DNA of 64,000 nt from a virus. Shown here one piece after another: positions 10,603 through 54,768 of this stretch. Below the pieces are notes generated by a model, which saw only the letters and a program-made list of their open reading frames with translations, was not told the DNA's origin and did no database searches. The stretch is taken from positions 12,279-76,278 of IMG/VR virus record IMGVR_UViG_3300001589_000003. The stretch is one strand, 5' to 3'. Position 1 is the first letter of the stretch, and every line of letters starts with the position of its first letter. The translations under genes and the position numbers were made by a program.

Positions 10603-13146
10603 TTATACGGGTTGAACTATTATACCTCTTAATTTTATTTTACGAACATGATTGGTTATTGCCTTTGCTAAGATAGCATCATCTGTATAACCATCATCGC
10701 TTGAGAGAAGATCATCAGTTTGGGGTCCTGAACCTTTCCCCATTGCTACAGCTTTGTTTTTCTCATCATATATAAAGGTGTAGGCTTCTTGCACGAATGC
10801 TTCATCCTTTATTATAATGTTATTCAGCCTGATGTCTTCCTCAAGTTCCCCTATTATTATGGGTCTATTCTTGGAAGTTGTATACCAACCTGGTATCTTC
10901 TCTTCTTTCGGCTTTCTTTTCTTTTTCTCCTTAACTAACTTAGTAGAGTAATAAAGCTTACTGTAATTCATCTCCTGTAGTTTAGAAGTTACTGCCAAAC
11001 CTATATCATTAGATTCTGGAGCTAGAATTGCTCTATGATATATGTTACCTAGTCCTGCCATTAGTATTGCAAGCTCATTTGGGGGTAGTTTACCCTTATA
11101 AGAACCATACTCTTCTCCTTTTTCATCCATTATGGATAGAGCCGAGTAATCTCGTGATCTACCAGTTGAAACGTCACCCCCTATTCCAAACCTTCTACCA
11201 TTCTCTGGTAACTTATAAATCTGTAAATTATCCCCCATTGAGGTTTTTACAGATTTTAGAACTTTATCAAATTGCCTATGTTTAGTTAGGTCTAATGGTA
11301 TGTAATCATTTAAGCTTTCTTCTATAGCTCTTATATCCAATAGATCAAATACTGAAGACCCTGACGTTAAAAAATCGCCGTCAATTTCTTGAGCAGTACG
11401 TCTTGGTCCCAATGATGCTGACATCTCATTATACCAATTTGGGAACTTCTTGGTAGTGTCATTATCCTTACCACGTTCTGGGTGCATCTCCCATTTAAGT
11501 CGTAATGGAGTAAACTCTCCACCGGAGCAAGCTTCTACCCATTTTTTGTGAAAGAAGTTCCCGATCCCATAGGGGGTGTTATGGTTAATAAAATGCGTTT
11601 TTGTTATATAAGATTCATCTTTTTCTACGCAAATGTCATAGATGGTGTCCTTAAATTTTCTCAGTACTACCAACTTACTTATTTTAACTCCTTTACATCT
11701 ACTACCATTTAGCACTCTAGTTACATAACTTGGGTGAATCCCTAAACTTTCTGCTATATCTTTTCTTCTTATCCCAGTATAGTGTTGTTCCCATATTTTA
11801 CCAATGGTCATGATATCGGGAAACCCTTTACCCGTATTGTTATTTAGAGTTAAGCCCCTAGAGTGTTTAACCGCTCTCTGGGCATTTTCTTTTCTAGTTA
11901 TAATTTGAAGGTTATTAACATGATCTATGTTCCTGGTATCATCCTTGTGATCTACTATATGACCCTTTGGTATCTCTCCTATAAAATGGGTAGCTACTAA
12001 TATTGATACTTTAAATTTTCTTGATTTTTGCTTACTCCAAAGAGATACTCTATGATATCCCTCTGAACTAACCATTAATCTCTTCTCCTTTCCAGAACCT
12101 CTATAATACACCTTACCATGGTTAGAGATAAGATAATTAGGGTAGCCTTTTATTTTTTCCTTTCTCTCCTTCTTAGGGGGTTTATTTAGGGGAGCAACTT
12201 TTAAATTATCAACTCCACTATCAAATGTAATAGTGTATAAATCCTTTTTGATTACCTGTTTTAAAGTTTTCCAGCCTTTAGTGGTTAATACCCTATGAGC
12301 TGGAGTTGCTTTTAGCCTCTGCCCCATGTCACTCTCCACTTCCCAGGTTTTAAGTTTTCCTTTGTTTACAGCTCCTAATACTCTTCTCCACTTACCTGTA
12401 TGTGATAATACCTCTAGTCCTAAGGCTTCCACATTATGTTTTCCAAAGTTCTTTGGGGCTATCATATCAACCCTAAAATTTCCACTTTTCCCAACTATTT
12501 CTGTATCACCTGTTATACAAGAATTAAGTATAGCTCTACCCCCAGTTGATAGTGTTGGAAATGCTGCAGCCCATATTTGATCTGCCCACCTAATGATCGC
12601 AGCTTCATCAATAACCAATAACGATAAAGCCTCAGATCGACCAGCTTCTTCTGTAGTTGGTATAGAGGTAATGAGAGAACCATTAGCGAACTCGATTTCG
12701 GAGGCAGTACCCAAGTCCTTAGTTCTCCCATTGATGATTTGTACTTGAAGGTGGTCAGGTAAGTTCCTATACATGAACTTAATCTTTCTCAATACCTTCT
12801 TAGCAACGGTGTCTTTTATGCTTATGATATTTATGTTCTTGTTTGAATGGAACATTGCATACCATAAGCAAAATAATGATATCAACTCTGTCAGCCCTGC
12901 CTGGCGGAATTTGAGTATAATATTAAACCTTTCTCTAATAAAGGAATAAAGTACAGCCCTTTGATATGGATATAATCCGAATTGGACTTTACCATAGACT
13001 GGGTTAATAACGTGTATAAAGTTGGAGAAAAAGAATGGGTCGGCAGCAGCTCTGGTTAAATCCTCGAATTCATCCGAAGACAAAGGTTTGTTTACAACCT
13101 TAGAAGCTCTACCCTTGGAGCCTATGTTTTCATCTGTATTATTCAT
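10603..13146 (-). CDS. terL: Terminase large subunit with intein
   Basis: ILKFRQAGLT Walker A, LLVIDEAA Walker B, IGGDVSTG and TDDAILA nuclease motifs. Confidence 0.92.
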   Translation of the reverse strand: MNNTDENIGSKGRASKVVNKPLSSDEFEDLTRAAADPFFFSNFIHVINPVYGKVQFGLYPYQRAVLYSFIRERFNIILKFRQAGLTELISLFCLWYAMFHSNKNINIISIKDTVAKKVLRKIKFMYRNLPDHLQVQIINGRTKDLGTASEIEFANGSLITSIPTTEEAGRSEALSLLVIDEAAIIRWADQIWAAAFPTLSTGGRAILNSCITGDTEIVGKSGNFRVDMIAPKNFGKHNVEALGLEVLSHTGKWRRVLGAVNKGKLKTWEVESDMGQRLKATPAHRVLTTKGWKTLKQVIKKDLYTITFDSGVDNLKVAPLNKPPKKERKEKIKGYPNYLISNHGKVYYRGSGKEKRLMVSSEGYHRVSLWSKQKSRKFKVSILVATHFIGEIPKGHIVDHKDDTRNIDHVNNLQIITRKENAQRAVKHSRGLTLNNNTGKGFPDIMTIGKIWEQHYTGIRRKDIAESLGIHPSYVTRVLNGSRCKGVKISKLVVLRKFKDTIYDICVEKDESYITKTHFINHNTPYGIGNFFHKKWVEACSGGEFTPLRLKWEMHPERGKDNDTTKKFPNWYNEMSASLGPRRTAQEIDGDFLTSGSSVFDLLDIRAIEESLNDYIPLDLTKHRQFDKVLKSVKTSMGDNLQIYKLPENGRRFGIGGDVSTGRSRDYSALSIMDEKGEEYGSYKGKLPPNELAILMAGLGNIYHRAILAPESNDIGLAVTSKLQEMNYSKLYYSTKLVKEKKKRKPKEEKIPGWYTTSKNRPIIIGELEEDIRLNNIIIKDEAFVQEAYTFIYDEKNKAVAMGKGSGPQTDDLLSSDDGYTDDAILAKAITNHVRKIKLRGIIVQPV
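11578..12519 (-). mobile_element. Intein (314 aa) containing an HNH homing endonuclease
   Basis: Begins CITGDT, ends INHN before T of TPYG; TPAHRVLT block B; YLISNHGKV and VDHKD...NNLQIITRKEN. Confidence 0.9.
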
Positions 13147-13844
13147 TTAAGTTTATAACCTATATCAGTTTTTAAAATGAATTGAGTATCGTTAGATAAA
13201 GTAAACGATGCGTCCCCTCTTAATCTAAATCTACCCTTAGAGATAGAATAATCCAAACCTAGGATGGGGGAACTCAATTGAAAGTTGTACCCAGTGTGTC
13301 CATATAGATTTGATACATAACTTGCATGTCCAACTTTTTTAGGCAATTCGTCGGCTCTAAAATTGCCTTCTCGAAATTGATATCTAAAACGGTCATAATT
13401 AACGCCAAAGGAGTTTTGCCTGATGGACCCGTCAATTCCCAACAGATCAAGTCTGAGGCTGTCCCCACTGAATTCTCCATAGATAAGTTTACTTGCATCT
13501 GGGTGTTGTTGTAGAAATGCTAATGAGATTTTGGTTATCTCTCCATTCAAAGAGTCTATTACGGATAACAGTGAGTCATCCATGACTACCTCTCTACTTT
13601 GGTAGCTTTTTGTAGAATCAATGTAATTTATAACATATCTAGGTGGAACATAATTTTCATACTCTGGTGTTGGTAATTTACTATAATCTACAAATACTGT
13701 TGTAGAGTCAGTTTTAAAATTTGGGTTTTCCCAATACTCTTTAGCCTTAGCATCTTGATCTTTCCTGTCAAGGTAAAAAAAGATTATTAAACCTATTATG
13801 GCTATCTGTACTATAAGGGAACCCCATTTTCTTAGGTTTTCCAT
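13143..13844 (-). CDS. Membrane-anchored protein, possible spanin-like
   Basis: N-terminal TM; C-terminal amphipathic beta strands ending DIGYKLK; in lysis cassette. Confidence 0.4.
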   Translation of the reverse strand: MENLRKWGSLIVQIAIIGLIIFFYLDRKDQDAKAKEYWENPNFKTDSTTVFVDYSKLPTPEYENYVPPRYVINYIDSTKSYQSREVVMDDSLLSVIDSLNGEITKISLAFLQQHPDASKLIYGEFSGDSLRLDLLGIDGSIRQNSFGVNYDRFRYQFREGNFRADELPKKVGHASYVSNLYGHTGYNFQLSSPILGLDYSISKGRFRLRGDASFTLSNDTQFILKTDIGYKLK

Positions 13845-13914
13845 AACTTTAAATTTTTAATTAAACATAACCCCTGAAACTAAGTTCAGAGATTCAACAT
13901 ACAATTGCATATAT

Positions 13915-13958
13915 ATACCCCCCTATTTTCCCCTTAAGGGGGAATAGGATGGGGTAAT
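13915..13958. repeat. GC-rich inverted repeat
   Basis: tacccccc.tattttcccc TTAA gggggaatagg..ggggta in an intergenic region. Confidence 0.55.
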
Positions 13959-13973
13959 ATTCATGCATTGTTG

Positions 13974-14165
13974 TTAGAATTCTTTTATTGCTGCTTTTAT
14001 AGAAGGCCAATTGAGTCCAACGAATATACCTACAAGAAGCCAAGCTATCTCATAGAACACTACCCCATTTTTGAATATGAATAGTAGTACAGCTATGGTT
14101 AGCAGTGTTGCCGATTTTAAAGCATACTTAGCTAACCAATTCTTAAGCATTACAAGATATTTCAT
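13974..14165 (-). CDS. Small two-TM protein, holin candidate
   Basis: 63 aa, two TM segments, next to endolysin. Confidence 0.5.
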   Translation of the reverse strand: MKYLVMLKNWLAKYALKSATLLTIAVLLFIFKNGVVFYEIAWLLVGIFVGLNWPSIKAAIKEF

Positions 14166-14172
14166 AAATTTA

Positions 14173-14733
14173 CTATTTAGTTAAACATTCGATAAATCCT
14201 TTCACACATAAGCCTCTGTCTCCATCGAAGTTGTATGATCTTTTCTTTCTGGCTACTTCTATACCTTCTCTACCTCCACTATCATTGGTATTCCCTTCTA
14301 CAGCCATGAAATGGGTTTTCTTCACATCTTCCACAATTCCAGCATGTCCATAAGTCCATACCCCATTTTTAGTCTTAGAAGGCTCACCATCTCTTCGTTT
14401 CTCAAATATAACCATTGATCCAGGTTTTGCTATCTTAGAAACTTTAAATAGTCCGGTATCATCCTTCTCAAAGTTCTCAAGTGTTCTAACAGCATTAGCA
14501 CTACAATTGTCTGTTATACTTGCCAATACTTTACTTTTACCCGAGTATGTAGGATGTGCCCAAGCAGCTTCTGCAAATAGTGCACACCATGCCCATCCGT
14601 TTTCAAAGCCCACTCTTCTCATAACACCATCAAGTATAGGGTTTACAAAACCCCCGTTATTGGGTATCTCTCTTTCACCTATCATCTCTCTTACCCATTG
14701 TAAAACTGCGTCATTCATTTTTAGTACTTCCAT
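14173..14733 (-). CDS. CHAP-domain endolysin
   Basis: AWCALF, GHAGIVE and VEGNT motifs. Confidence 0.85.
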   Translation of the reverse strand: MEVLKMNDAVLQWVREMIGEREIPNNGGFVNPILDGVMRRVGFENGWAWCALFAEAAWAHPTYSGKSKVLASITDNCSANAVRTLENFEKDDTGLFKVSKIAKPGSMVIFEKRRDGEPSKTKNGVWTYGHAGIVEDVKKTHFMAVEGNTNDSGGREGIEVARKKRSYNFDGDRGLCVKGFIECLTK

Positions 14734-14737
14734 TGTT

Positions 14738-15733
14738 TTAAAAGTTTAGTTTATCTATTATTGATTTGAACCATACCCCTATTTCGTAAGGGGGTGATTT
14801 TGTTACTGTTGTTCTAGCTTTGTTAATACAGTACTCTGACCAATCCTCATCATACCATAGTTTAAAAGAGTCTGGAACTCCTTGTATTCTAGCCATCTCT
14901 CTAGGTGATAACATGTGACCCCAATGATTAAACTGTCTGTTAGCTTTCCTTACTGTAAATGGGTATGCGTTGGCAAAATTACGATATACCCCTGGTTGGT
15001 TCTTCATACGCTCCCTATTTACAGGCCAACGATTTTCCGCCTTGAATTCCGTTAACCAGAGCTTTCTAGCTTTCTTAACAGATACCCTAGAATCATCGCC
15101 ATAATATAGGTTAATCATTTTCTTGTCATCTTCAGTAACATGACATATACTAGGATTATATTCCTCTAATCCTTTTATCAATTCACCTGACGTTTTGTAG
15201 ATGAAGTCGGTCTTTGGTAGTTTAAATTTTTTTATTGTATTCTTGGGTAAATCCTTATGAACCCCCACTATTACTAATCTAACCCTAGTTTTTTGAGAGT
15301 TACCCCAAGCTGATACTGACTCCTTAAAAGTAACTGTTCTGTAGTTTAAGAACTCATCCAGTAGGGTTGGGTAGTGCTCAAGCATCTTGGGTAAATTCTC
15401 CATCATAAAGAACTGAGGTTGGTAGTAGTTGATAGAATCCACAAATGCTCTTAGACTAGCGTTCTCGCTCGGATCACTCATCTTCTTAGCCCTAGAGTAG
15501 GCTAGTACTGATGAATGCCCACAGTCTGGAGCTCCAATAATGATATCTACCCCATCCTTCCTATACCTGACATCTGTTGTTTCATCATAGGATACGTTAA
15601 AATTTAGGTTCCATTGTTTTTGGTGGGTGGTGTGAAACACAGTTCTTGGTTCTATATTACCAACAAGTTGGTTTCTAAATGGGTGAAGTATTACACCGTT
15701 ACCTCCACATACTCCTAATGTTTTCAAGCTCAT
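14738..15733 (-). CDS. Atypical C5 cytosine DNA methyltransferase homologue
   Basis: GAPDC (motif IV), MENL (VI), QKTRVR (VIII), LSPREMARIQG (IX); motifs I and X are divergent. Confidence 0.75.
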   Translation of the reverse strand: MSLKTLGVCGGNGVILHPFRNQLVGNIEPRTVFHTTHQKQWNLNFNVSYDETTDVRYRKDGVDIIIGAPDCGHSSVLAYSRAKKMSDPSENASLRAFVDSINYYQPQFFMMENLPKMLEHYPTLLDEFLNYRTVTFKESVSAWGNSQKTRVRLVIVGVHKDLPKNTIKKFKLPKTDFIYKTSGELIKGLEEYNPSICHVTEDDKKMINLYYGDDSRVSVKKARKLWLTEFKAENRWPVNRERMKNQPGVYRNFANAYPFTVRKANRQFNHWGHMLSPREMARIQGVPDSFKLWYDEDWSEYCINKARTTVTKSPPYEIGVWFKSIIDKLNF

Positions 15734-15820
15734 ACAATTTATAAGATAAGTATTGTTTGACTATTATTTCACCTAGAGTTTTAATTTTTTTATTCAATTA
15801 TTTAATCATATCTTTATCAC

Positions 15821-16129
15821 ATGGAAATCAAAGAATATATAAAAAAGGCAAAAAAATATCAGAAGACCCCCAAACGGAAAAAGCTTGATAGACTAACTTA
15901 TTTAACTTTAGGATATGCGGGTGAAGGAGGAGAGGTAGCAGATGAGATTAAGAAGGCATGGAGAAATAAGTCGGGTAGGATAACTAAAGCACGTAGAAAC
16001 AAAATATTAATAGAAATGGGTGATGTCTTGAATATTACTTTTAGAATGATGAAGGAACTCGACTGTACCATGGAAGAACTTCTGGATATACACTTAGAAA
16101 AACTTAAAAATAAAGCTAAACCATTTTAA
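15821..16129 (+). CDS. MazG-like nucleotide pyrophosphohydrolase
   Basis: LGYAGEGGEVADEIKK...EMGDVL. Confidence 0.8.
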   Translation: MEIKEYIKKAKKYQKTPKRKKLDRLTYLTLGYAGEGGEVADEIKKAWRNKSGRITKARRNKILIEMGDVLNITFRMMKELDCTMEELLDIHLEKLKNKAKPF

Positions 16130-19883: not shown

Positions 19884-20250
19884 AGTTATGAGAAACTATA
19901 TGAAGCCCCAGAAGAAGAGAAACCGGTGGGACCCTTATAACCCCAAAGTATCACTTAGAGTCAAGAACGCTTATAGGAAGGTAGGGTTCACTATGACGAG
20001 GCTGGAAGATACATGCCCTACTTGCATGGGTGATAGGGAACTATGTAGAGCCAAGAAAGTCAAGGTTGAGGTTAATAACTTTATGGTTATATATTGTTCT
20101 AAAAGCTACTACATACTAGTATACAAAAAGATGTCAACCCTTGGCAAGTACCTAGAACGAATTGTTCTGGATTATCCGAAACCCTTAGGAGTTTGCCTGA
20201 AAATTCCCGTACTAAAAAAGGCACACGGTGTGAATAGAGGATATAAAAAT

Positions 20251-20289
20251 GAGGAAAGGAATAGGGGATCAATCCCTATCCAATCCCTC
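20251..20289 (-). terminator. Hairpin terminator at the convergence of plus and minus genes
   Basis: ggaatagggga-tcaa-tccctatcc stem; T-run follows on the minus strand. Confidence 0.5.
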
Positions 20290-20306
20290 ATGCATCAATC
20301 AATAAT

Positions 20307-20717
20307 CTATCCTATAATTGATTTAAGATAATCCAAAAGATTCTTGCAATCTTTGAGATCAATCTCATTCCTTGAAGATGAGAAATTCTCTATCTTAAAA
20401 TCTTGGATTTTCCAATTCTCTTTATAGAATTCCATAAATGATTCAATTGAGATCAATCTCTCTTCATCTGATCTATCTTTTCCAAGGATATCATTGATAT
20501 ATCCTCTTAATCCTCTTCTGATCTTCGATCTCTTTTTCTTCTTATCCTCTGATCCTAATGCATCTAATCCCTTATATATGGATTTAGATGATCCCTTGGC
20601 ATCTTCCTTATCCAATAGAGATTTCTTTCCTTTGGATAGATCAATCTTGATATTAGATGCATTCAATGCATCATTAGATTGAGATTCTTTCTTTGCATCC
20701 TTTAATTGATTTTTCAT
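20307..20717 (-). CDS. Basic putative pre-early protein lacking Thr and Val
   Basis: 136 aa ORF inside the island with its own promoter-like repeat. Confidence 0.75.
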   Translation of the reverse strand: MKNQLKDAKKESQSNDALNASNIKIDLSKGKKSLLDKEDAKGSSKSIYKGLDALGSEDKKKKRSKIRRGLRGYINDILGKDRSDEERLISIESFMEFYKENWKIQDFKIENFSSSRNEIDLKDCKNLLDYLKSIIG

Positions 20718-20742
20718 GATATTAGATTTAATTGATTAATAA

Positions 20743-20995
20743 ATTATTGATTTTCAAATATTATAAATGATTTTGGATTATCCTATATAAATGATTAAAA
20801 AGATTAATCCCTCTATAAAGATAGATATTCCCATGATGAATTTAAATTTCATGATCTTAATTTCTTTTCTTGATAATCCGATAGATTCCTGAATGATGAT
20901 TTGATTTTTCATGATCTTGATTTATTTAATTGATTATTGATTTTCAAATATCTAAATAAATTCTGGATTATCCTATATAAATGATTAAAAAGATT
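20743..20995 (-). promoter_or_regulatory. Tandem duplicated promoter-like blocks (20743-20805 and 20933-20995)
   Basis: 63 bp near-identical direct repeats, each with ATATTTG upstream of an MKNQ-starting ORF. Confidence 0.65.
20778..20912 (-). CDS. 44 aa membrane peptide lacking Thr and Val
   Basis: Translated by hand: MKNQIIIQESIGLSRKEIKIMKFKFIMGISIFIEGLIFLIIYIG. Confidence 0.55.
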   Translation of the reverse strand: MKNQIIIQESIGLSRKEIKIMKFKFIMGISIFIEGLIFLIIYIG

Positions 20996-21194
20996 CTCGG
21001 TAATTTCTCTCCTAACTCATGGACAATTCCGGTCGGCTGGTCTCATACACAAAGAAGGCCTGTAGCGCAGTACTTGGCCTCAGACCCTTTTATTCTTTGT
21101 AGTATTGGAATTATATGGAAGTGAATAAGATATTCGTATTTCGTGATCTAATCCACTAGAGATATGAGTGGGTATGCCTATTTCTAACCGAAGA

Positions 21195-22189: not shown

Positions 22190-22504
22190 TTAGTGTTTAT
22201 GGTCTGGAGCAGTCCTGGTGTCTGAATACTCCACATTTGCTAGGTAATCATAGTACCAGGCCTTCCAATATTCTTCCTCTGATGCATCGAATGACCAAGC
22301 TTCCCAACCTTTACCTTGTATGATTGCCTCCTTGATCTCTTCATCATGACTACCTCTCATATCTACATGATCACCATTGAAGGTAACTTGGTGCTCATTC
22401 ATTTCTTTGAACCAATTTTCTTCATCCAAATAATTATCTATAAATGAATAATCTTTGATCTGCAACCCTTCTTCAATTAATGCATCCTCTCTTAAATTTT
22501 CCAT
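22190..22504 (-). CDS. Acidic early protein (start MENLRED)
   Basis: ORF behind an AC/GT-free promoter patch. Confidence 0.55.
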   Translation of the reverse strand: MENLREDALIEEGLQIKDYSFIDNYLDEENWFKEMNEHQVTFNGDHVDMRGSHDEEIKEAIIQGKGWEAWSFDASEEEYWKAWYYDYLANVEYSDTRTAPDHKH

Positions 22505-22563
22505 GATCTTATATATTTGATTTTCAATAATCAATATAGAGATAATAAATGATTGATCCTATT

Positions 22564-22956
22564 TTAATTGATCCCACCTTGTCTAGGTTCGGGTCTATTT
22601 GGTGTATCTGGCATTTTATCAGTGTACCATATATGTTTGTCAGCCCAATCTATTTCTAGGCCTTCTTCAAGAAATACCTCTTCGTGTACCATCACGTTGG
22701 TTATCATCTCTTTGATCTCTTCATCAGAGGGTCTTGGGTCTACCCCTTCAAAGTCCTTGAGTGCTTTAGCAAATATAGCAGCCTCCATTACAGTTTGGTT
22801 TTCATCCTCTAAGGGTTTACCTTCCTTAAATAACTCATCTATCTCATCCAGTATGGTATTGCATTTACCTTGAATGTTATTTGCTTCTTGACGTAAAGCT
22901 TTAAGCTCATTCATTTTAGATGTTATGTTCTCGTGTATTTCTTCTAATCTGCTCAT
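22564..22956 (-). CDS. Hypothetical coiled-coil protein
   Basis: ORF track. Confidence 0.5.
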   Translation of the reverse strand: MSRLEEIHENITSKMNELKALRQEANNIQGKCNTILDEIDELFKEGKPLEDENQTVMEAAIFAKALKDFEGVDPRPSDEEIKEMITNVMVHEEVFLEEGLEIDWADKHIWYTDKMPDTPNRPEPRQGGIN

Positions 22957-23363: not shown

Positions 23364-23658
23364 AATGTCTTCTTTAATTCTTTAATAAGAGTAGTTTTCA
23401 TGATGTTATCTTCTATGTAGTGTAGATTGGCCCTATGTTGCAGATGGGCTATCCCACTAGGGGCATGGTTGTTTCCTATAAACTTAATTATAGTCTTTTT
23501 TAGCTTTAGTAAGCAAATGATCTTTTTCAATCTCTTTTCTAATTCCCATAATTTTTCTATTCTTGGTTATCCAGCATCATATCATAGTTCTCAATATCAT
23601 CATGATAAAATTTGGCTTCCTCCAATTCCTTAATAGATTTATATATAATTTTTTTCAT
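23360..23658 (-). pseudogene. Early gene split by a frameshift near 23560
   Basis: MKKIIYK...NQE-stop, then IEKLWEL...KKTL in the -1 frame ending in an ATGA overlap. Confidence 0.4.
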
Positions 23659-23697
23659 AATTAAAGATATGCATAAATATTGGATAATCAAAATTAT

Positions 23698-23907
23698 TTA
23701 ATCGGGGTTCTCAGAGTTTAAGTCTACGGCCTCCAATATTAGAGCACCTAATGTTGCAATTGATTCCGGTGACAGTTGATTTGCAGGATTAAGTAATATT
23801 AATCTAAGTCTTAATGGTAATGATCTCACTAGACTTCTATTAGTGTCATGGGAATTACGCCTTTGTTTCACTTTTCCCATACTGAAGTGGTATTTTGTTT
23901 TAGGCAT
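23698..23907 (-). CDS. Hypothetical protein
   Basis: ORF track. Confidence 0.4.
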   Translation of the reverse strand: MPKTKYHFSMGKVKQRRNSHDTNRSLVRSLPLRLRLILLNPANQLSPESIATLGALILEAVDLNSENPD

Positions 23908-38331: not shown

Positions 38332-39321
38332 TCAAATACCTAATTTTTTATTCTTCTTTAGTCTTTTCCTGGCTTTGTTTGGGTCTTTGTTCTTGGGGTT
38401 TAGCAATTGTAAGTCCAAGTCCTTAAGTGCTGATTCCAAGAACTTCCTAGAGGCTATTCTCTTACGTATGTTGTTATAATTCAAAGCATAACCAGTCATT
38501 TGTCTGAACTTGGGCCAGAATAATTGACCCTCTACTGGGTTCTTTGGCTCGTCAAAGTTGTAGTTGTATAACAAGTCCAGAAACTGCTCAGCTCTTTCTG
38601 GTCTAGTGAATAGGTATAGGCCCACCCTTGATAATTCCCTAGCTGTATCGTCACTGTGCTCCACCTCAATGATTGAGTCGGCATAGTCAACGAATTTAGA
38701 GAATATGGGTACATATAATAGGTTATTTGGTTTTCTAGTCTTTGATGTATAAGAGTATCTTTTTATTATTTGCTCAACAGTGAACGTATTCATGGTTAAT
38801 AGGTTCTTTATGTTGTTCTTATCATTGTTCTTGTTTCTCCTTTTGAATGCTGATGGCTCTTGTATCTCTTTGGGTAATATTCTAAAGTTATTCCATCGGT
38901 CGAATTCAAATACCATTAGGGCAAAGTTCTTATCTACAACAGATTTGGAGTTAACTAGCCTTTCCATCTCATCTATGATAATTTTATCCCTAACTGATGT
39001 TATGGTGAATTTTATCTTATCCACCTTTGCTACAGCTTCATTGGTTTTCATCCTTTGCTTTATAGCATAGTTTAGGTATTTTCTAAATCTCTTGTCTATT
39101 TTTACATAGCTGGGTATAACAGTATCATACATAGTTAAATGCTCTGAAAACATCTTTAAAAAATGTTGGGCTCTTGCCTCTATCTCTAGGAATTTATAAT
39201 GAGCTCTTTCCATGATCTCACCTGCTTCCCAAGTGGATTTACCATGACCATACCTTAGAGATAAAGCTAGTTGCTCATCCTCAAGTAATAATTTCCAAGC
39301 CTTTTTATTATAACCTGTCAT
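38332..39321 (-). CDS. Protein with N-terminal sigma70 region-4-like HTH
   Basis: EQLALSLRYGHGKSTWEAGEIM...EARA. Confidence 0.5.
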   Translation of the reverse strand: MTGYNKKAWKLLLEDEQLALSLRYGHGKSTWEAGEIMERAHYKFLEIEARAQHFLKMFSEHLTMYDTVIPSYVKIDKRFRKYLNYAIKQRMKTNEAVAKVDKIKFTITSVRDKIIIDEMERLVNSKSVVDKNFALMVFEFDRWNNFRILPKEIQEPSAFKRRNKNNDKNNIKNLLTMNTFTVEQIIKRYSYTSKTRKPNNLLYVPIFSKFVDYADSIIEVEHSDDTARELSRVGLYLFTRPERAEQFLDLLYNYNFDEPKNPVEGQLFWPKFRQMTGYALNYNNIRKRIASRKFLESALKDLDLQLLNPKNKDPNKARKRLKKNKKLGI

Positions 39322-39998
39322 TTTTTCTTAAGTTTATATTCCATCTCATCAGTTGATAGCTCCTTCATTTCTGTGTTCATGAAGGACTCCTTGTATATAG
39401 TGTAGAAGATGTTCTCAAAGGATACTGTAACCCTTGACATGTGAGTTTGCAATAGTAATTTTACCTCTACTTCTTTTTTCTTTTTCTTTACCTTTATTAT
39501 TTCTGCATCCAGACCATCGAATGGATACCCCTTCAATACAACTATCTTACCTTCATATAGGTTTTCTACATCCGCTGCACTATATATTGATTTAGAATTC
39601 TGGCTTTTTCTTATCCTTATTATCTCCTTGGTAGTTACTATACCTATGCCCATTGGGTTGTGTAAGAAGTAGCTAGGGTTCTTAGTGTAGTCAAGATCAG
39701 TGTATGCGCATCTATCAGTTACCCAAGCATAAATGGCTGTTATATCCTTTTGCATTTGTTTTAGCAAATGGCTATTAGGTAGGAAGTATTTAGGAACACT
39801 AAAGAACCCGTAGTTAAATAAGAATGGTATATCTTCAAAATGTTCTTTGCCTTTGTGTCTCTTATTTAAAACACTTACCATGGGTACAAATGAAGTGACA
39901 CCCTTATAAACATTAGACTTCTTTAAGTCATCCTGTATAGTGCTTATATGTTTAGATGATATATAAGCACCGATCCAAATTACTGGTCTTTTTGCCAT
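39318..39998 (-). CDS. NusG/RfaH/UpxY-like transcription elongation factor
   Basis: PFLFNYGFF NGN motif; KOW GKIVVLKGYPFDGLDAEI. Confidence 0.7.
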   Translation of the reverse strand: MAKRPVIWIGAYISSKHISTIQDDLKKSNVYKGVTSFVPMVSVLNKRHKGKEHFEDIPFLFNYGFFSVPKYFLPNSHLLKQMQKDITAIYAWVTDRCAYTDLDYTKNPSYFLHNPMGIGIVTTKEIIRIRKSQNSKSIYSAADVENLYEGKIVVLKGYPFDGLDAEIIKVKKKKKEVEVKLLLQTHMSRVTVSFENIFYTIYKESFMNTEMKELSTDEMEYKLKKK

Positions 39999-48221: not shown

Positions 48222-48668
48222 TTAACGTTCATTTCTAATGTTTGCTGATATGGTTTGTAGTAAGTCCTTTCGTATTTCAAATGATCTTACACAAACCTCA
48301 AGTAAATCTTTAAGTTCTTCAAGCTCTAGGACACTGCGTTCCATTGACTTCACCTTTTTATCCTTTGTCACCAAGTAAGCCTCTGCCTCCTTTAATGATG
48401 TATACCCTTTGTTCTTCTTAACAATGGGTATCATTCTAGTTTTCTTAGCTGATAGTTTTTTGTGGAGTTCCTTATGTTTTATAAGTATCTTCTTATGAAG
48501 CATAGCTACAAATGCATAACTTGTAGCATGGTTCTTCAATTGCTTTATCATGTTTTCTTTGTCTATCTTTAACTCTTTATAGACATTGAATTCAAAGACC
48601 TCACCATTATAAGAGACCTTAATCTCCATAACTTTTGAGGTCTCTGCATACTTATATAAATTACCCAT
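48222..48668 (-). CDS. UvsY-like recombination mediator
   Basis: Helical; C-terminal RKDLLQTISANIR; synteny with SSB and RecA. Confidence 0.5.
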   Translation of the reverse strand: MGNLYKYAETSKVMEIKVSYNGEVFEFNVYKELKIDKENMIKQLKNHATSYAFVAMLHKKILIKHKELHKKLSAKKTRMIPIVKKNKGYTSLKEAEAYLVTKDKKVKSMERSVLELEELKDLLEVCVRSFEIRKDLLQTISANIRNER

Positions 48669-49285
48669 TAACCTAATATGTTTATTATTTTATTCTTTCT
48701 ATCATCCAATAGTAATGGGGTAATTAAATGTATTTTAGTATTACTATTCACCCTACTCATTTCTGCTTGAAACTGGTAATGATATAGGGAAAAAATATGG
48801 GTCACCATGTGTTGATAAACTTGAGAAGTTAACCTTGAACCATTATCTTCCACAAAATCAAACATAAAGGGTACTACAAATATGTGATCCAGTGGTATCA
48901 TAGCTTGAATACAAGCTTCATAAAAATCATGGTTTATTCCATCATTTTGATACAACCCAGCTTGTAACATATAATATACAAAGTTATCTATTGGGCTTCT
49001 ATCAGTAACAAACACTTGGTTGTCCTTTATAAGCTCTGACCTTCTGGTTAGTATCATTCTTTGCAACTCATATCCAAATTCTGGGTTATTGTGAGACTCC
49101 TTTATTACTTTAGCATGACCTTCCCGCCCTTCAACCCCAAACCTACTAGCTAGGTATTCTCTGTCGTCATCAGTTTTTAAATCCCCAGATGAACCAGACA
49201 AATGGGGTAAATTATAATGTTCTGCAACCCATTTTACTAGGGTTGTCTTGCCTGAGCCGCTGGCTCCAGAAAATGCAACTTTCAT
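48668..49285 (-). CDS. P-loop nucleotide (dNMP) kinase
   Basis: GASGSGKTT, TDRSPID, EDNGSR. Confidence 0.7.
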   Translation of the reverse strand: MKVAFSGASGSGKTTLVKWVAEHYNLPHLSGSSGDLKTDDDREYLASRFGVEGREGHAKVIKESHNNPEFGYELQRMILTRRSELIKDNQVFVTDRSPIDNFVYYMLQAGLYQNDGINHDFYEACIQAMIPLDHIFVVPFMFDFVEDNGSRLTSQVYQHMVTHIFSLYHYQFQAEMSRVNSNTKIHLITPLLLDDRKNKIINILG

Positions 49286-49300
49286 ATTATTATTATTATT

Positions 49301-51544
49301 TTAGTTTAACCATTTATTATAATCCTCCTTTATACTATAACCTTCTAACCCTGCCCAGTGTTTACCAACCTCAGCACCCATCTTTAAAAATACCTTTTCC
49401 ATCTTACAACCAAAGTACTTCTCTGATTCAGGGCTGGAGCATACCTCAACTATTTTAGGTACTGCTAAATGTATAAACTCTGGCTTAACATAGAAACCTA
49501 TTGAATCATGCACTGTATATGCTTGAGGTTTATATTTTTCTATGTCAGTGAGTTTTAACTCACCCTTATTAACTAAATCTCTTAATGCTATGGATGATAG
49601 TTGAGTAAAGTCTGAGGCTGCACTCTGAATAGGGGCATTGATTGAGTCCCTCATAGCCTTCCTTCTCACACCGTCATCATTGGAATATATGCTACCCAGC
49701 CTTCTCTTCCTACCAAAGATGTTCATAACATACCCATGTTTCATAACATATTTTTCTTGGTGTTTGAACCATGCTCTAACGCCTGGGTACATCTCCAACC
49801 ATTCGTTCTTAAAAATTTGAGCCTCTTCTTTAGTTACTATGTCTCCTGGTTCTGATAGGGTTCCAGCAAGCATCTTCGCTGATTGTTGATAGAGTATACC
49901 AAAGTTTATAACTTTAGCTCTCTTCTTTAGTTTGGTCCAGTATAGCCAGTCTGGATGGTCTTTGTTATCCAGTATAACTTTAACCTCATTATACATATCA
50001 AGTTTGCCAACTGATTTGCAGGCAGTAGCAACATGGATGTTATATTTTCTAGCAAAGATGTCTATCATTGCTTGATCATTTGCTATCTCTGCTACTACCC
50101 TTAACTCAGCCTGACCATAATCTACCTCTAATATTAGATGGTCTTTGGGTGGTACAAATGCAGTCTTTATCAATGGGGTTGTGGTAGCTCTAGGAATGTT
50201 CTGCATATTTGGGTCCCTAGATGATAACCTCCCAGTAACGGTGCCATGTATAAAGTAATTACCATGAAGTGTGTTGTGTTTTGTTAATTTATCTAAGATA
50301 CCTACCATGTAAGTCGAGTGCATCTTAGTTAACTCCCTATAGTCTAGTAGGTTCTGAATGAAACCAGTTTTATCTATAAGTCTTAGCTCTAATAAAACCT
50401 CTTCATCCGTGGAAGGTCTGTCCGTTTCTTGTTTAGTTTCCTTATCCTTGGTGTACTTTATAATCTTAAACCCTAACCCCTTCGGTGAGGTGAATAGGAG
50501 TTCTATCATTTGATTGGGTGATGCAAAGTTTACATCATCTACTACTTCATTCTTTGAAACTAACTCCCCTGCTATATACCTACTTATCTTCTCATATCTA
50601 TTCCTAACAGCCATATCCACATTTTTCATGGGCTCTTTTCCAGGCTTCAAAGGTTTGCCTTTCTTTATTAGTTTTATCTCTTCTTTTGTTTTAGTTATTA
50701 GCTTCTCTATGTGAGACTGTACTCTCCATTTCTGGAATTTCTTTATAACTTTTTCTTTCTTTAATAGGTCATGAGTTATAGCAATCTTTTTACCCTGTTC
50801 CTTTTCCACCTCGGCTAGATAGGGTTTATCTATCACCATCCCTACAAATTCTGATTCTGCTAGTACTCTAGTTTGCATCATGCACATGTTTCTAAATAGA
50901 TCATAAAACTTGTGCTTCCAGAGTAGTCTCTCCAATACTAACATCAACCTTAAAGTTAAATCGCAATCCAGTACGCAATATTTTGATAAGGATTTTATAG
51001 GTATATTCCCCCACCCCTTATACTTGGCTATCATACCATGTACTTCATCCTCATAGTCTGCAAACTCTGGTAGTAAAGATTTAACTAAGGATTTAAGATC
51101 ACTAGGTGGTGTCTCTTCTAAAAGGTATTTAGCAAGCATTGCATCGAAGAGTCTACCTCTCATCCTAATACCATACCTTAAGAACCATTTGTATTCAAAC
51201 TTTAAATTGAATGCCACCTTTATAACATTTGCATTCTCACATATATGTTTTCCGAAATATTTTAGTATTTTCTTAGCCTCTTTTCTAGTAAAGCATGAGT
51301 CCTTATGAAATAGAGGTATAGCATATCCAGCACCTGGTTGAAATGAAACTCCTAATATGGTAGGTTCATCTTTCTTGTATTGAAACCCCACTGGTTTCTT
51401 ATCCCCTTTAGATGTCAAGGGTCCTTCTGGTCCTGTAGCTTTAGTTTCAAAGTCAATGGATGCATACCCAGTCTCTTTACACCAAGCTACTATCTGTCTT
51501 ACCTCTTCAAAGGTAGATATTATTTTATACCTCTTTTTACCCAT
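49301..51544 (-). CDS. polA: Family A DNA polymerase with 3'-5' exonuclease
   Basis: DFET, TGRLSSRDPNMQNIP, DYGQAELR, AKVINFGILY, VHDSI. Confidence 0.93.
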   Translation of the reverse strand: MGKKRYKIISTFEEVRQIVAWCKETGYASIDFETKATGPEGPLTSKGDKKPVGFQYKKDEPTILGVSFQPGAGYAIPLFHKDSCFTRKEAKKILKYFGKHICENANVIKVAFNLKFEYKWFLRYGIRMRGRLFDAMLAKYLLEETPPSDLKSLVKSLLPEFADYEDEVHGMIAKYKGWGNIPIKSLSKYCVLDCDLTLRLMLVLERLLWKHKFYDLFRNMCMMQTRVLAESEFVGMVIDKPYLAEVEKEQGKKIAITHDLLKKEKVIKKFQKWRVQSHIEKLITKTKEEIKLIKKGKPLKPGKEPMKNVDMAVRNRYEKISRYIAGELVSKNEVVDDVNFASPNQMIELLFTSPKGLGFKIIKYTKDKETKQETDRPSTDEEVLLELRLIDKTGFIQNLLDYRELTKMHSTYMVGILDKLTKHNTLHGNYFIHGTVTGRLSSRDPNMQNIPRATTTPLIKTAFVPPKDHLILEVDYGQAELRVVAEIANDQAMIDIFARKYNIHVATACKSVGKLDMYNEVKVILDNKDHPDWLYWTKLKKRAKVINFGILYQQSAKMLAGTLSEPGDIVTKEEAQIFKNEWLEMYPGVRAWFKHQEKYVMKHGYVMNIFGRKRRLGSIYSNDDGVRRKAMRDSINAPIQSAASDFTQLSSIALRDLVNKGELKLTDIEKYKPQAYTVHDSIGFYVKPEFIHLAVPKIVEVCSSPESEKYFGCKMEKVFLKMGAEVGKHWAGLEGYSIKEDYNKWLN

Positions 51545-51956
51545 ATTTTTTTACATCTACTCCTGCTCTAAGTAACACTTTTAAAGGCTCTGTATCTCTG
51601 AACTCTTCTGAGTATTCTACAACCTTTATCCCAGATTGAATTATTGCCTCTGCACATTTTATACATGGGCTGTGTGTACAGTATATTGTTGCCCCTTGTA
51701 GTTTTATACCATTCTTTGCAGCAAAGTATATTGCATTAGCTTCAGCATGTATCGCTCTCTTGCAGGTCTCACCCAAAAAACAATTTATATCATTACATTC
51801 GTGGTCATCTTTAACTGGACCATTATACCCAGTAGCTATAATCCTATTTTCTATGGTTATTACTGATCCCACTTGTAACCTACCACATGTACCCCTTTGT
51901 GACATTAACTTTGCCATCTGTAGGTATAGGTCTCTTCTTGTTATTCTCTCAATCAT
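51537..51956 (-). CDS. dCMP deaminase
   Basis: TGYNG, HAEANAI, PCIKC. Confidence 0.9.
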   Translation of the reverse strand: MIERITRRDLYLQMAKLMSQRGTCGRLQVGSVITIENRIIATGYNGPVKDDHECNDINCFLGETCKRAIHAEANAIYFAAKNGIKLQGATIYCTHSPCIKCAEAIIQSGIKVVEYSEEFRDTEPLKVLLRAGVDVKKYG

Positions 51957-51973
51957 ATATCTAAATAGTATAT

Positions 51974-52732
51974 TTAGTAATTATCATAGACCTCAAAATC
52001 ACCTTGAAAGCAGTGTAGATTAGCTATATGCATATTTATATGCCCAGGTCTTAATCTCTTACCCACTCTACCCATGACATGGTATAATAACCTAACCGCC
52101 ATGTATATATCATCTCTAAAATGCCTGATAACATCACATGATCTAATGTAATATGTTATATCCATCCTACCATTTTTTACTTGAAATAGATACCCCAAAG
52201 TACATGGTACTCTCTGACCTCCTAATGGTCCTGTATCTTCTGGGAACCATATGGGTAAGAATGCTTTTCTAGTGTGTTTCTGGTCTTTCAATAGGTTGAT
52301 TACATCATCTAAATCTCCATACTCATACCTAATACCATGTAAGCTTAAATGTTTATGGGCTACGTGTTTAGGCCATATTCTTTCTGGGTAGGTATGAGAG
52401 AATTGCTCATCTTTTACATGTTTTGCGTTAGCTCTTACACCAAAAGGCCATCTTACATGAGATGGAGGAGGATTCAAGGGTTTACCTGATACCCTCTCTA
52501 AAAAATGCTCATCGGCCCATGGTAAATTGGGTTGGCATTGGATTACTAACTCATTGATATTGCTAGGTACTGGTGCTCTAAATGATATACCCAATACTTC
52601 TACCATCTTATCTAATGGAGTTGTGGATTGCCAGGAGTTACCTTGATGGGTTGTACCTGCTACTACTAAATGATCTTTACAAGCTTTTATAGCTCTACTT
52701 ATACTTGAGTACTCTTTTATGGTTGGTGTCAT
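51974..52732 (-). CDS. Thymidylate-synthase-fold enzyme 1, dCMP-type
   Basis: VPCT catalytic Cys; RSCDVIRHFRDD with Asp at the specificity position. Confidence 0.8.
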   Translation of the reverse strand: MTPTIKEYSSISRAIKACKDHLVVAGTTHQGNSWQSTTPLDKMVEVLGISFRAPVPSNINELVIQCQPNLPWADEHFLERVSGKPLNPPPSHVRWPFGVRANAKHVKDEQFSHTYPERIWPKHVAHKHLSLHGIRYEYGDLDDVINLLKDQKHTRKAFLPIWFPEDTGPLGGQRVPCTLGYLFQVKNGRMDITYYIRSCDVIRHFRDDIYMAVRLLYHVMGRVGKRLRPGHINMHIANLHCFQGDFEVYDNY

Positions 52733-53607
52733 CTCTTTCTAGTGTTATGTATTCTTAATTCTTGTGGGGTTTGTACATCTTTTGGAATTAAGTCTTGGTC
52801 AGGTCTAAGTTTTAAAGTCTTAGCCTTCATTGATTTAACTCCACTTATTGGTAAGCCATCCTTACCCTTCTGTATCTGCATTACTGACCTCCTGTTAACC
52901 CTAAACATTATTGATTTAGGGTCAGGGTGGTTCATGTATTCTTTGAATTTCTTTTTAACATTCACGTGAAACTTATAATCATCCTGATCTGTACCCTTTA
53001 ATGACTTTTTTAATAGCTTCATTATAGGTTTCACATTATTGTACATCACAAAACTCTCTGCTGTAATATAAAAGGATGGAGCAAATAAGTGCACCTCAAA
53101 TTCATTGTGACCATATATGTATTCCCCTATCCTTTGTACTAATAAGAAATCAAACAGTAACCTCTTAGTAACTTCGGATGTTCTGATCTGGAATACAAGA
53201 ATTGGTTTGGGTTGATAAGGTCTTTTAGTAAATGTAATTGCCACTAAGCAATCCTTACCTGATCCGTGAGAGTTGTCGAAGTGATAAGTATAGTTATACA
53301 TACTCGCTTTCTTAGCTACCCTCTCCGAGATAGTAGCACGTAAGAGATCAAGATAGTTAAAGTCTACATAATTATTCACTAGAGCAGTCCATTTTTGAAG
53401 AGAATACCCCAAGGTTATACCAAAGTCAAACTCTGGGTCAACCCATGCCTCCTCCATGGTTACATAGTTATTAAAGCTTAGCATCTTTGACCCTGCTAAC
53501 CCTCCTCCTGTTGGTGCTATCTTACCTTGCTCAAGAAAAAGATACTCATTGATACCCTGCCAACCTTTCTGTAGGTTTTTAAACTTTAGTTGTGTTATGT
53601 GATGCAT
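52729..53607 (-). CDS. Divergent thymidylate-synthase-fold protein 2
   Basis: KDCLVAITF and IRTSEVTKRLLFDF with TS-like spacing. Confidence 0.55.
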   Translation of the reverse strand: MHHITQLKFKNLQKGWQGINEYLFLEQGKIAPTGGGLAGSKMLSFNNYVTMEEAWVDPEFDFGITLGYSLQKWTALVNNYVDFNYLDLLRATISERVAKKASMYNYTYHFDNSHGSGKDCLVAITFTKRPYQPKPILVFQIRTSEVTKRLLFDFLLVQRIGEYIYGHNEFEVHLFAPSFYITAESFVMYNNVKPIMKLLKKSLKGTDQDDYKFHVNVKKKFKEYMNHPDPKSIMFRVNRRSVMQIQKGKDGLPISGVKSMKAKTLKLRPDQDLIPKDVQTPQELRIHNTRKR

Positions 53608-54295
53608 ATTCTTTTGATATGGTTTCTAGGGTTGAATAAATATTTAATGGATGAGCACCTACTGAATCTAAGAATTTAGTAAAGTATAGCCAAGCCTCCA
53701 TCAAGTTTTTACATAAAGTTTGGTAGTCTCCTCCCCACCCTTGAAGAGCTGACCTTAATACACATGCAAATTTAAACTGATCTACTTGGTTATGGTGATC
53801 AGTTTCTATTGAATATTTTCTACCCATCAAACCCAAGGTAAAATCTTTTTCTACATCCTCATCAGTGTAGATGGAGTAGGATGAGTAATTAGCTATCCTC
53901 ATGGTATCATCAAATATATTGGAATGCCTACCATAAGCTAAAGATGTTTTCAGAGCATCATCAAAAAATATACCTGATAAATTTCTTTCCCTCAGTAGTA
54001 TATCATAATACTCATTAATGTTTTCAGGCATTATGTTATTGTCTTTCATAAGTCCTATAAATACCCCCAAAGCTTTTGCTAGTGCTGTATTATAATCTTC
54101 TAATAGTTCCTTTACATCTGGTCCCTCCTCTGGGTTATAACCAGCATCAAATACATGTTGTATTTTGGATTGAATGTACCATGCTTCTGATAAATGAGTC
54201 ATTATACATACCTCAGCTCCTATATTACATTCAACTATTGGGTCTATAAACTCATAGATGCCTTCTAGTAACATACCCTTATTAAATAACTCCAT
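53579..54295 (-). CDS. Possibly degenerate all-alpha dUTPase/dCTPase-like protein
   Basis: Helical; YNTALAKALGVFIGL resembles an EElaDalhF helix without the acids; synteny. Confidence 0.35.
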   Translation of the reverse strand: MELFNKGMLLEGIYEFIDPIVECNIGAEVCIMTHLSEAWYIQSKIQHVFDAGYNPEEGPDVKELLEDYNTALAKALGVFIGLMKDNNIMPENINEYYDILLRERNLSGIFFDDALKTSLAYGRHSNIFDDTMRIANYSSYSIYTDEDVEKDFTLGLMGRKYSIETDHHNQVDQFKFACVLRSALQGWGGDYQTLCKNLMEAWLYFTKFLDSVGAHPLNIYSTLETISKEYASHNTTKV

Positions 54296-54300
54296 ACTAT

Positions 54301-54768
54301 CTATTTTAGTTTAATATAAATTTTGTCATCTACCTTTTTAACCTTGAGTTTACTAGAATCTTTTACTGCTTTTTGTATAAGTTTAGTTATCTCTGGTTTC
54401 TTAAGTAAGTTAGTAGGATCGAATTTTTTACAAACCTTTCTATGCAAACCCTTTAGATTCATCTTGTTTTTACCCTCTAACAACTCAATTATATACTTCT
54501 GTAGCTCTTCCATATCTATACTTACCTCCTCTAGGTCTTTAAAGTTACCCTTACTCTCTAGCTCTAGCCTAACCTTTGATTGGTACTGAGCACTTATGAT
54601 CATGCATATTTCTGCATCACCACACTGACCACATACTTTACTATCCACTGAGTGGTGCATACCAAAACATGGATCATCCCCTGAACCGAACATTTCTATG
54701 GTTATGGGTTTCATGAAATTAACCTCGCTCATATTTATTTTTTTACGTTTTTTTCTTTTGGGTTTCAT
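54301..54768 (-). CDS. Four-Cys metal-binding hypothetical protein
   Basis: DPCFG...CGQCGDAEIC. Confidence 0.55.
   Translation of the reverse strand: MKPKRKKRKKINMSEVNFMKPITIEMFGSGDDPCFGMHHSVDSKVCGQCGDAEICMIISAQYQSKVRLELESKGNFKDLEEVSIDMEELQKYIIELLEGKNKMNLKGLHRKVCKKFDPTNLLKKPEITKLIQKAVKDSSKLKVKKVDDKIYIKLK

Follow-up and report, generated by a model that had tools for sequence, protein, structure and literature searches.

What does a homologue of the cytosine-C5 methyltransferases do to phage DNA when its catalytic residues are kept and the residues around its methyl donor are altered? The question is raised by a stretch of 64,000 nucleotides of the viral record IMGVR_UViG_3300001589_000003 (the window, whose own numbering is used throughout), in which a coding sequence on the minus strand (14738 to 15733; ATG start, 331 amino acids) stands at the head of the late genes. 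We refer to its product and the homologues of that product as family A. Judged by its sequence, the family A enzyme is an orphan homologue of the C5 methyltransferases, with the residues for covalent catalysis intact and the donor pocket changed; a second PF00145 gene is absent from the genome. Our tentative preference is that it transfers a non-methyl group from a donor of the S-adenosylmethionine (SAM or AdoMet) type, following the logic of the phage enzyme CmoX.

Fold and catalytic motifs

The family A protein matches PF00145 of Pfam over residues 37-295 only (E 1.7e-17; 64.3 bits, the cut-off being 22), and its PHROG match is PHROG 116, 'DNA methyltransferase'. With the dcm model of NCBIfam (TIGR00675) it reaches 42.6 bits, below the curated cut-off of 100.65. 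An AlphaFold2 model computed from 35 family A sequences has a mean pLDDT of 93.6 and a pTM of 0.91, and its top Foldseek matches in the PDB are 3G7U (the CP-933R prophage methylase), 8YF3 (CmoX; second in rank, E 8.6e-14), M.HaeIII and M.HhaI, with E-values of about 1e-14 to 1e-13. Superposition with VIA-align on DNMT1, M.HaeIII, DIM-2, ZMET2 and M.HhaI gives Z of 23-26 and a root-mean-square deviation of 2.7-3.1 Å over 270-300 of the 331 residues; the individual Z values are 25.5 for M.HaeIII and 23.8 for M.HhaI (residues 1-331), and 22.9 for CmoX. The model contains both a Rossmann-like catalytic domain and a target-recognition domain, and as predicted the protein is a complete two-domain DNA cytosine-C5 enzyme.

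Invariance was counted over 208 aligned full-length members of family A. Motif IV, PDCGHSS (P69-S75; 15509 to 15529, on the minus strand like all motifs given here), holds the invariant catalytic Cys71, preceded by an Asp70 that covaries with Lys312; motif VI, ENL (E112-L114; 15392 to 15400), is invariant in the 208 sequences, as are Q147, R150 and R152 of motif VIII, QKTRVR (15278 to 15295); motif IX, SPREMARIQGVPDSF, covers residues 276-290 (14864 to 14908). The Pro-Cys of motif IV, the Glu of motif VI and the QxRxR of motif VIII are thus all present, with Asp in place of the second Pro (P-D-C). An initial annotation of the window had stated that the catalytic motifs PDC, ENL and QxxRxR are kept; they can be read directly in the sequence and are invariant in the family. 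Altogether, the invariant or nearly invariant residues are G11, G13, E28, R30, P69, C71, S75, E112, N113, L114, Q147, R150, R152 and K305.

The altered donor pocket

The residues around the donor follow another pattern. Motif I is represented by GVCGGNGV (residues 7-14; 15692 to 15715), the VCGGNG of the initial annotation, in which G11 and G13 are invariant and the place of the adenine-stacking Phe is taken by Cys, Asn or Ser; across the 208 members the motif reads (V/I)(C/N/S)(G/A)GNG, with C, N, S, A or M at the Phe position. Between N44/F45 and P69, where motif III should lie, the 208 members hold no conserved acidic residue. Near the C-terminus, INKARTTVTKSPP (14789 to 14827) comprises an INKAR helix with conserved N304, K305 and R307 and then TKSPP, the equivalent of motif X. 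None of the canonical dcm features (FxGxGG with its Phe, the motif III Asp, GN(A/S)V) is present, and the family form of motif X is T/A-K-x-P-P.

The placement of motif X was obtained through a larger, divergent C5-methyltransferase-like family found among the weaker matches of an exhaustive search, here called family B, in which the canonical QxGN(A/S)VP appears as QTG(K/R)xxP with the Asn replaced. In profile-profile comparison family A aligns with family B at a probability of 100% (E 7.6e-55), TVTK falling on QTGK, and family B aligns with SpCmoX at 98.5%, QTGK falling on the RVGR that ends in Arg350; Lys312 therefore lies at the canonical Asn position of motif X (N304 of M.HhaI, R350 of SpCmoX). 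MAFFT likewise aligns Lys312 with Arg350 of SpCmoX, and in the predicted secondary structure KSPP is a loop separating the last two helices, consistent with this placement. The direct hhalign comparison of family A with SpCmoX (E 7e-10 by profile) ends just before motif X. An alternative assignment to K305-A306-R307, which HMMER had aligned with the GNA of M.HaeIII, was replaced by the placement through family B, and the proposal that motif X is TKSPP is thereby upheld.

The initial annotation had spoken of altered SAM-binding motifs. Three elements of the pocket are indeed changed (the motif I Phe, the motif III Asp and the motif X Asn), but the further idea of a lost cofactor is not supported, as G11, G13 and Glu28 are invariant. 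Since these residues and Arg30 are invariant, a nucleoside-type cofactor is probably still bound. CmoX and M.MpeI N374K (see below), in which the donor is changed and not lost, are nearer precedents than cofactor-free chemistry.

One lysine at two positions

A strict regularity in the family concerns positions 70 and 312, whose equivalents in canonical structures flank the transferable methyl group. All 208 sequences have exactly one Lys at one or the other, without exception: D, N, T or S at 70 accompanies K312 in 192 of them, and K70 accompanies S, N or Q at 312 in the other 16. On a FastTree tree this pattern needs three changes, at least two of which are forced by well-supported branches. 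Because the rule is so strict and the swaps occurred independently at least twice, the sequences argue that a single Lys at this spot is functionally required.

Family A itself is a large, uncultured family. The exhaustive HMMER search of 1.84 billion representatives returned 228 matches, 50 of them at E < 1e-30 and followed by a gap, and a word-indexed search returned 516 clusters (90% identity) at E <= 1e-10, of which the named ones all bear the automatic label 'site-specific DNA-cytosine methylase'. Among GenBank phages there are two relatives only (38-39% identity), both from human faeces. The gene belongs to the late core genes of an entire clade of environmental and gut phages of about 75-85 kb; we found no description of family A in the literature.

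CmoX and the proposed reaction

CmoX of Synechococcus phage S-B43 is a DNA cytosine C5-carboxymethyltransferase (PDB 8YF3; PMC12783734). Its Arg350 replaces Asn304 of M.HhaI and contacts the carboxymethyl group of carboxy-SAM (Cx-SAM); the wild-type enzyme uses Cx-SAM only, and the R350N mutant accepts neither donor (PMC12783734). The engineered M.MpeI N374K accepts Cx-SAM, as related in PMC12783734, and the engineered carboxymethyltransferases described there and in PMC12015181, including a variant of M.MedI, have Lys at the motif X Asn. In the two recorded cases, CmoX and M.MpeI N374K, a basic residue at this Asn goes with a non-SAM donor, which offers an analogy for family A, where the M.HhaI Asn304 position is likewise basic (K312, a Lys and not an Arg; the 16 members with Lys at 70 differ in this). 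The SPPC of CmoX is APDCG in our protein, and across the family the variable position is D, N, K, T or S. In the published census, 4257 CmoA genes accompany 5615 CmoX contigs (PMC12783734); its criteria, SPPC and R350, left families A and B out of the count.

In the reaction that we tentatively prefer, the family A enzyme would act on replicated phage DNA shortly ahead of packaging. Cys71 would attack C6, with Glu112 and Arg150/Arg152 completing the set for covalent catalysis, and a polar group, probably carboxyl-bearing or zwitterionic, would be moved to C5 from an AdoMet-type donor. Glu28, the ribose-binding residue, and the Gly-rich loop could hold the nucleoside part of this donor, while Lys312, which takes over from the motif X Asn, and Asp70, the neighbour of Cys71, could hold the polar end of the transferred group. 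Carboxy-SAM itself is doubtful as the donor, because no CmoA is encoded.

Several points weigh against this preferred reaction. CmoA (TIGR00740) was not found in the phage's own 76-kb genome or in those of five relatives, of which three are complete (supply by the host is possible), and tblastn with SpCmoA gave no match within 10 kb of about 110 family A or B loci. As a control, the same family search does detect SpCmoA in S-B43; in a control panel for CmoA, E. coli alone exceeds the cut-off, with no signal from Bacteroides thetaiotaomicron. An AsnB-type ligase (PF00733), as CmoY would be, is absent from the own genome. The adenine contacts of CmoX (Phe25, Phe48 and Asp69) are not conserved in family A, and an Asp70 beside Lys312 would cancel its charge and push a carboxylate away. 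That residues 70 and 312 lie close together is itself deduced from covariation and from homology to published structures. Finally, if cytosine were fully replaced by a 5-substituted base through the thymidylate synthase homologue described below, C5 would not be free.

A sister family in replication modules

Family B was examined in 44 loci of uncultured phages (L085-L128; for example L126:9242-11185 and L113:7812-11083). The two families share the GxGS/GNG loop, GNIE(W/x)R, HPxCG, (E/D)NLP, YGNxQxxRxR and a Lys or Arg at the motif X Asn, and both co-occur with a homologue of thymidylate synthase (TS) that carries Asp at position 177. This TS homologue, with the same signature, directly adjoins the family B gene in 40 of the 44 loci; a dCMP deaminase occurs in 29 and an AsnB-type amidoligase in 25, and PolA, a dUTPase_2-type pyrophosphatase and a P-loop kinase are also found. 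Unlike family A, family B thus sits in a replication and nucleotide module, beside the TS homologue and, in 25 of 44 loci, near the ligase; it also has Asp for the motif VI Glu (DNLP, not ENV) and often a Cys-rich C-terminal tail. CmoA is absent from the family B loci as well (tblastn with SpCmoA, 10 kb). The nearby AsnB-type amidoligase, placed like CmoY near CmoX, implies by analogy that the family B product carries a carboxylate. The conserved cassette (AsnB-type amidoligase, Asp177 TS homologue, family B enzyme and PolA) looks like an undescribed pathway of cytosine hypermodification; we found no literature description of family B.

The cytosine nucleotide pathway

The window encodes several enzymes of cytosine nucleotides, all on the minus strand: the TS homologue (phrog_160; 51974 to 52732), a dCMP deaminase (51537 to 51956) and a P-loop protein resembling dNMP and thymidylate kinases (48668 to 49285). 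Alignment of the TS homologue with the T4 and L. casei enzymes places an Asp on Asn177 of ThyA, keeps Asp169 and places an Arg on position 143. By published residue rules, Asp177 marks dCMP as the substrate and a retained Asp169 speaks against a 5-hydroxy-dCMP synthase (PMC13326640), so that the protein belongs to the dCMP-type C5-modifying enzymes. A non-hydrophobic residue at 143 goes with hydroxymethylation, but the known hydroxymethylases have Asp or Glu there (PMC13326640), whereas the present protein has Arg. TS homologues occur in all ten genomes (10/10) that carry a family A gene.

Because a dCMP-type TS homologue co-occurs, C5 may possibly be substituted already when the family A enzyme meets the DNA, which would favour the chemistry on 5-hydroxymethylcytosine (5hmC) suggested in the initial annotation. 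That C5 methyltransferases can, without SAM, act on hydroxymethyl groups and couple nucleophiles to 5hmC is borne out by in vitro work: eM.SssI couples thiols to 5hmC, and M.HhaI with formaldehyde yields 5hmC (PMC7176277). The Asp177 TS homologue and the adjacent dCMP deaminase could also form a route to dTMP.

The TS homologue overlaps by 4 nt a gene for 292 amino acids (the pair spans 51974 to 53607) that has no Pfam or NCBIfam match and matches only phrog_34294, of unknown function; two more unannotated genes follow (53579 to 54295 and 54301 to 54768). TGT and DpdA, which represent other writers on G or C, were not found in the genome.

Alternative explanations

The alternative that survives best, although we hold it to be somewhat unlikely, is an ordinary SAM-dependent orphan C5 methyltransferase that places 5-methylcytosine (5mC) at a short site on progeny DNA, against host restriction. 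The odd motifs would then be merely neutral drift, with an Asp70-Lys312 ion pair substituting for the packing of Pro and Asn. Most phage PF00145 proteins are plain methylases, and the present one passes the PF00145 threshold, superposes over its whole fold on M.HaeIII, M.HhaI and DNMT1, and retains the Gly-rich loop and Glu28; its genome has neither a gene for donor synthesis nor a ligase, and the labels that JGI gives to the homologues are those of a site-specific DNA-cytosine methylase. Against this, the strict one-Lys rule and its swaps speak for function and not for drift, and a basic residue occupies the place of an Asn whose replacement goes with the loss of SAM use in CmoX and with the acceptance of Cx-SAM in M.MpeI N374K. 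The score far under the NCBIfam dcm cut-off also tells against a plain methylase, and the TS homologue of the ten genomes may leave no unsubstituted C5 to methylate.

A second alternative, which we consider unlikely, is chemistry on a pre-substituted cytosine, the initial annotation's own idea: the TS homologue would supply 5-hydroxymethyl-dCMP, the DNA would carry 5hmC, and the family A enzyme would attack C6 of this base with Asp70 and Lys312 as acid and base, so that the hydroxymethyl group is exchanged, capped or removed. Coupling of a nucleophile, O-alkylation or dehydroxymethylation would be the outcomes. The residues of the TS homologue (Asp177, Asp169 and Arg143) and its presence in ten of ten family A genomes and, in 40 of 44 loci, directly next to the family B gene are in line with such a supply; so are the dCMP deaminase, the dNMP-kinase-like protein and MazG, all of which are present. 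Also in its favour, the adenine contacts of motifs I and III are lost, and reactions of the required kind are performed by C5 methyltransferases in vitro (PMC7176277). Known hypermodifications are typically added late, before packaging (PMC13326640). Yet complete replacement of C is only a possibility, and TS(Asp177) with dCMP deaminase could instead lead to dTMP. Continued binding of a nucleoside cofactor is suggested by the invariance of Glu28 and of the Gly-rich loop; natural enzymes with such an activity are not known; and the nucleotide-metabolism module could co-occur for unrelated reasons.

A bolder form of this alternative covers both families, and we give it low credence: A and B would be the first natural non-methylating enzymes of the C5-methyltransferase fold, which derivatise TS-derived 5-hydroxymethylated cytosines in DNA to a new hypermodified cytosine. 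Once Cys71 had added to C6, Asp70 and Lys312 together would activate the 5-CH2OH, and a small nucleophile or alkyl donor lodged in the former SAM pocket would be joined to it; in family B the AsnB-type ligase would go on to amidate the product. Transfer of the 3-amino-3-carboxypropyl part of SAM to C5 would agree with the data equally well; it needs no CmoA and would explain the pairing of an acid with the Lys.

Any other role (recognition of DNA for packaging, site-specific deamination of cytosine under SAM starvation, or C5 chemistry on RNA such as tRNA in the manner of DNMT2) is very improbable: the gene is fixed directly upstream of the lysis and terminase genes in 65 of 66 loci with no small terminase recognised there, and DNMT2 is among the weak sequence and fold matches, but catalytic residues invariant in more than 200 sequences would be needless for pure binding, the structures that match best are those of DNA enzymes whose target-recognition domains are bound to DNA, and the CpG depletion of the window comes without the TpG/CpA excess that would be the signature of deamination.

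Late-operon context

The family A gene was described initially as the first gene of a lysis-terminase-head operon, and its surroundings agree. It is followed by a CHAP-domain endolysin (14173 to 14733, minus strand) after a spacer of 4 nt, two membrane proteins, the large terminase TerL (10603 to 13146, minus strand), the portal and the capsid genes, and it is syntenic with TerL in 65 and with the portal in 64 of 66 related viral loci; the type of endolysin varies. The interval between the family A gene and TerL (13143 to 14733) holds the endolysin, a membrane protein of 63 amino acids and a conserved membrane-anchored protein of 233 amino acids (13143 to 13844, minus strand; in 40 related loci), and contains no recognisable gene for a small terminase. 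Upstream lies a variable block, transcribed in the opposite direction, whose first gene encodes a MazG-like pyrophosphatase (15821 to 16129, plus strand), possibly for clearing dCTP.

The octamer ACAATACT (15749 to 15756, minus strand), the motif pointed out initially, lies 16 nt upstream of the ATG and is a candidate phage late promoter element. By itself it is weak: the 7 copies in the window all lie on the minus strand, but 3.8 would be expected, and 7 shuffles in 100 yield at least as many. The hexamer CAATAC, however, is found no more than 70 nt upstream of the gene's homologue in 28 of 53 relatives, which supports ACAATACT as a conserved control element.

Because the enzyme is an orphan and heads a conserved late and packaging block, marking of progeny DNA before packaging is a reasonable role for it. 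The proposal of the initial annotation that it is the best candidate for a sequence-specific writer acting before packaging holds to that extent, but the AC/GC specificity attached to it fails (see below).

A few observations concern neighbouring genes. TerL has 847 amino acids against a family median of about 500, and its extra part matches HNH_3, NUMOD4, HTH and Intein_splicing (below the cut-off); this insert is probably an intein with a homing endonuclease. A helicase of 909 amino acids (54782 to 57511) has an endonuclease-like insert (phrog_4645, residues 263-461) that is possibly a second intein or a fused nuclease. A paralogue of the NusG/UpxY-like antiterminators (39318 to 39998) matches NF033644 at E 2e-9, below the cut-off; it gives a weak hint of phage-directed control of transcription and, together with the faecal relatives, hints weakly at a host among the Bacteroidota. 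A search of genome contigs with the NusG-like protein gave no match.

The AC/GT-free island and base composition

A 770-bp island (20230 to 21000) is free of AC/GT, which elsewhere has a mean spacing of 9.8 bp; a duplicated promoter-like repeat and small open reading frames lie inside it, and two shorter stretches (22465 to 22576 and 23587 to 23707) were noted with it. In the relatives an island recurs at the syntenic place, 2-9 kb upstream of the gene for the enzyme (for example L006:2724-3467, L073:4159-4943, L027:4197-4959, L028:3108-3609, L077:2872-3285 and L079:2215-2413); it is depleted of AC/GT in 6 loci and of CC/GG in about 20, and in one locus a run lacks GA/TC. Were the banned dinucleotide set by the enzyme, the type of island would follow the enzyme, and it does not. 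On the enzyme tree the AC type needs at least three origins among CC types, L069 (AC) and L068 (CC) being sisters (support 96) and L053 (AC) the sister of L024/L039 (CC; support 99); no alignment column of the enzyme separates AC-type from CC-type loci, and the conserved parts of the target-recognition domain are identical in both groups. The enzyme sequence as the determinant of island type was therefore rejected, and with it the AC/GC specificity that the initial annotation had implied. The island is a separate phenomenon and carries no information on the enzyme's target. Many complete, terminally repeated contigs start within a few kb of the island, which suggests that it lies near a physical end of the genome.

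Base composition is equally uninformative on the target. The odds ratio of CpG in the window is 0.31, with TpG/CpA at 1.02 (no excess) and CC/GG (1.30) and AG/CT (1.20) enriched; the observed/expected CpG of the relatives is 0.26-0.77. No 4-mer palindrome is markedly avoided in the window except for a rare CGCG.

Significance

Automatic pipelines label the large family A simply as 'site-specific DNA-cytosine methylase', although it differs at the one residue that is known in this fold to determine whether methyl or carboxymethyl is transferred, and has none of the known accessory genes. A product other than 5mC would open a ready route to a new natural DNA modification and to a new scaffold for DNA-labelling enzymes, as M.MpeI N374K and CmoX have become. 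Plain 5mC would mean that an enzyme with Lys in place of the motif X Asn can still use SAM when an Asp accompanies the Lys, which would be useful for engineering.

Comparison with known systems

With the DNA cytosine-C5 methyltransferases (M.HaeIII 1DCT, M.HhaI 1MHT, 3G7U and DNMT1), family A has in common the full-length two-domain fold, the motif IV Cys, the motif VI Glu, the QxRxR of motif VIII, the motif IX helix and the format of a monomer-sized orphan enzyme. Unlike them, it has P-D-C-G and not P-P-C-Q in motif IV, lacks the motif I Phe and a conserved motif III Asp, and has T-K-x-P-P and not G-N-A/S-V as motif X; R30, N304 and K305 are additional invariant residues, sequence identity is 15-20%, and the score stays under the NCBIfam dcm cut-off.

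CmoX resembles family A in being a phage protein of the C5-methyltransferase fold with a basic residue at the motif X Asn (R350 in CmoX, K312 in family A). It differs in keeping SPPC, Phe25/Phe48 and Asp69, in usually lying beside CmoA and an amide ligase, and in targeting GC, whereas family A has APDC and an acidic partner for its Lys, lacks CmoA and the ligase, belongs to a late packaging block and shows only remote sequence kinship to CmoX (E 7e-10). With the engineered M.MpeI N374K it shares the Lys at the motif X Asn position; that enzyme and the M.MedI variant, however, are single substitutions in an otherwise canonical CpG methylase with PPC, while family A has a pocket remodelled throughout and pairs its Lys with an Asp. 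We would place family A as a variant among the enzymes of the C5-methyltransferase/CmoX kind, a member neither of CmoX nor of the canonical Dcm enzymes.

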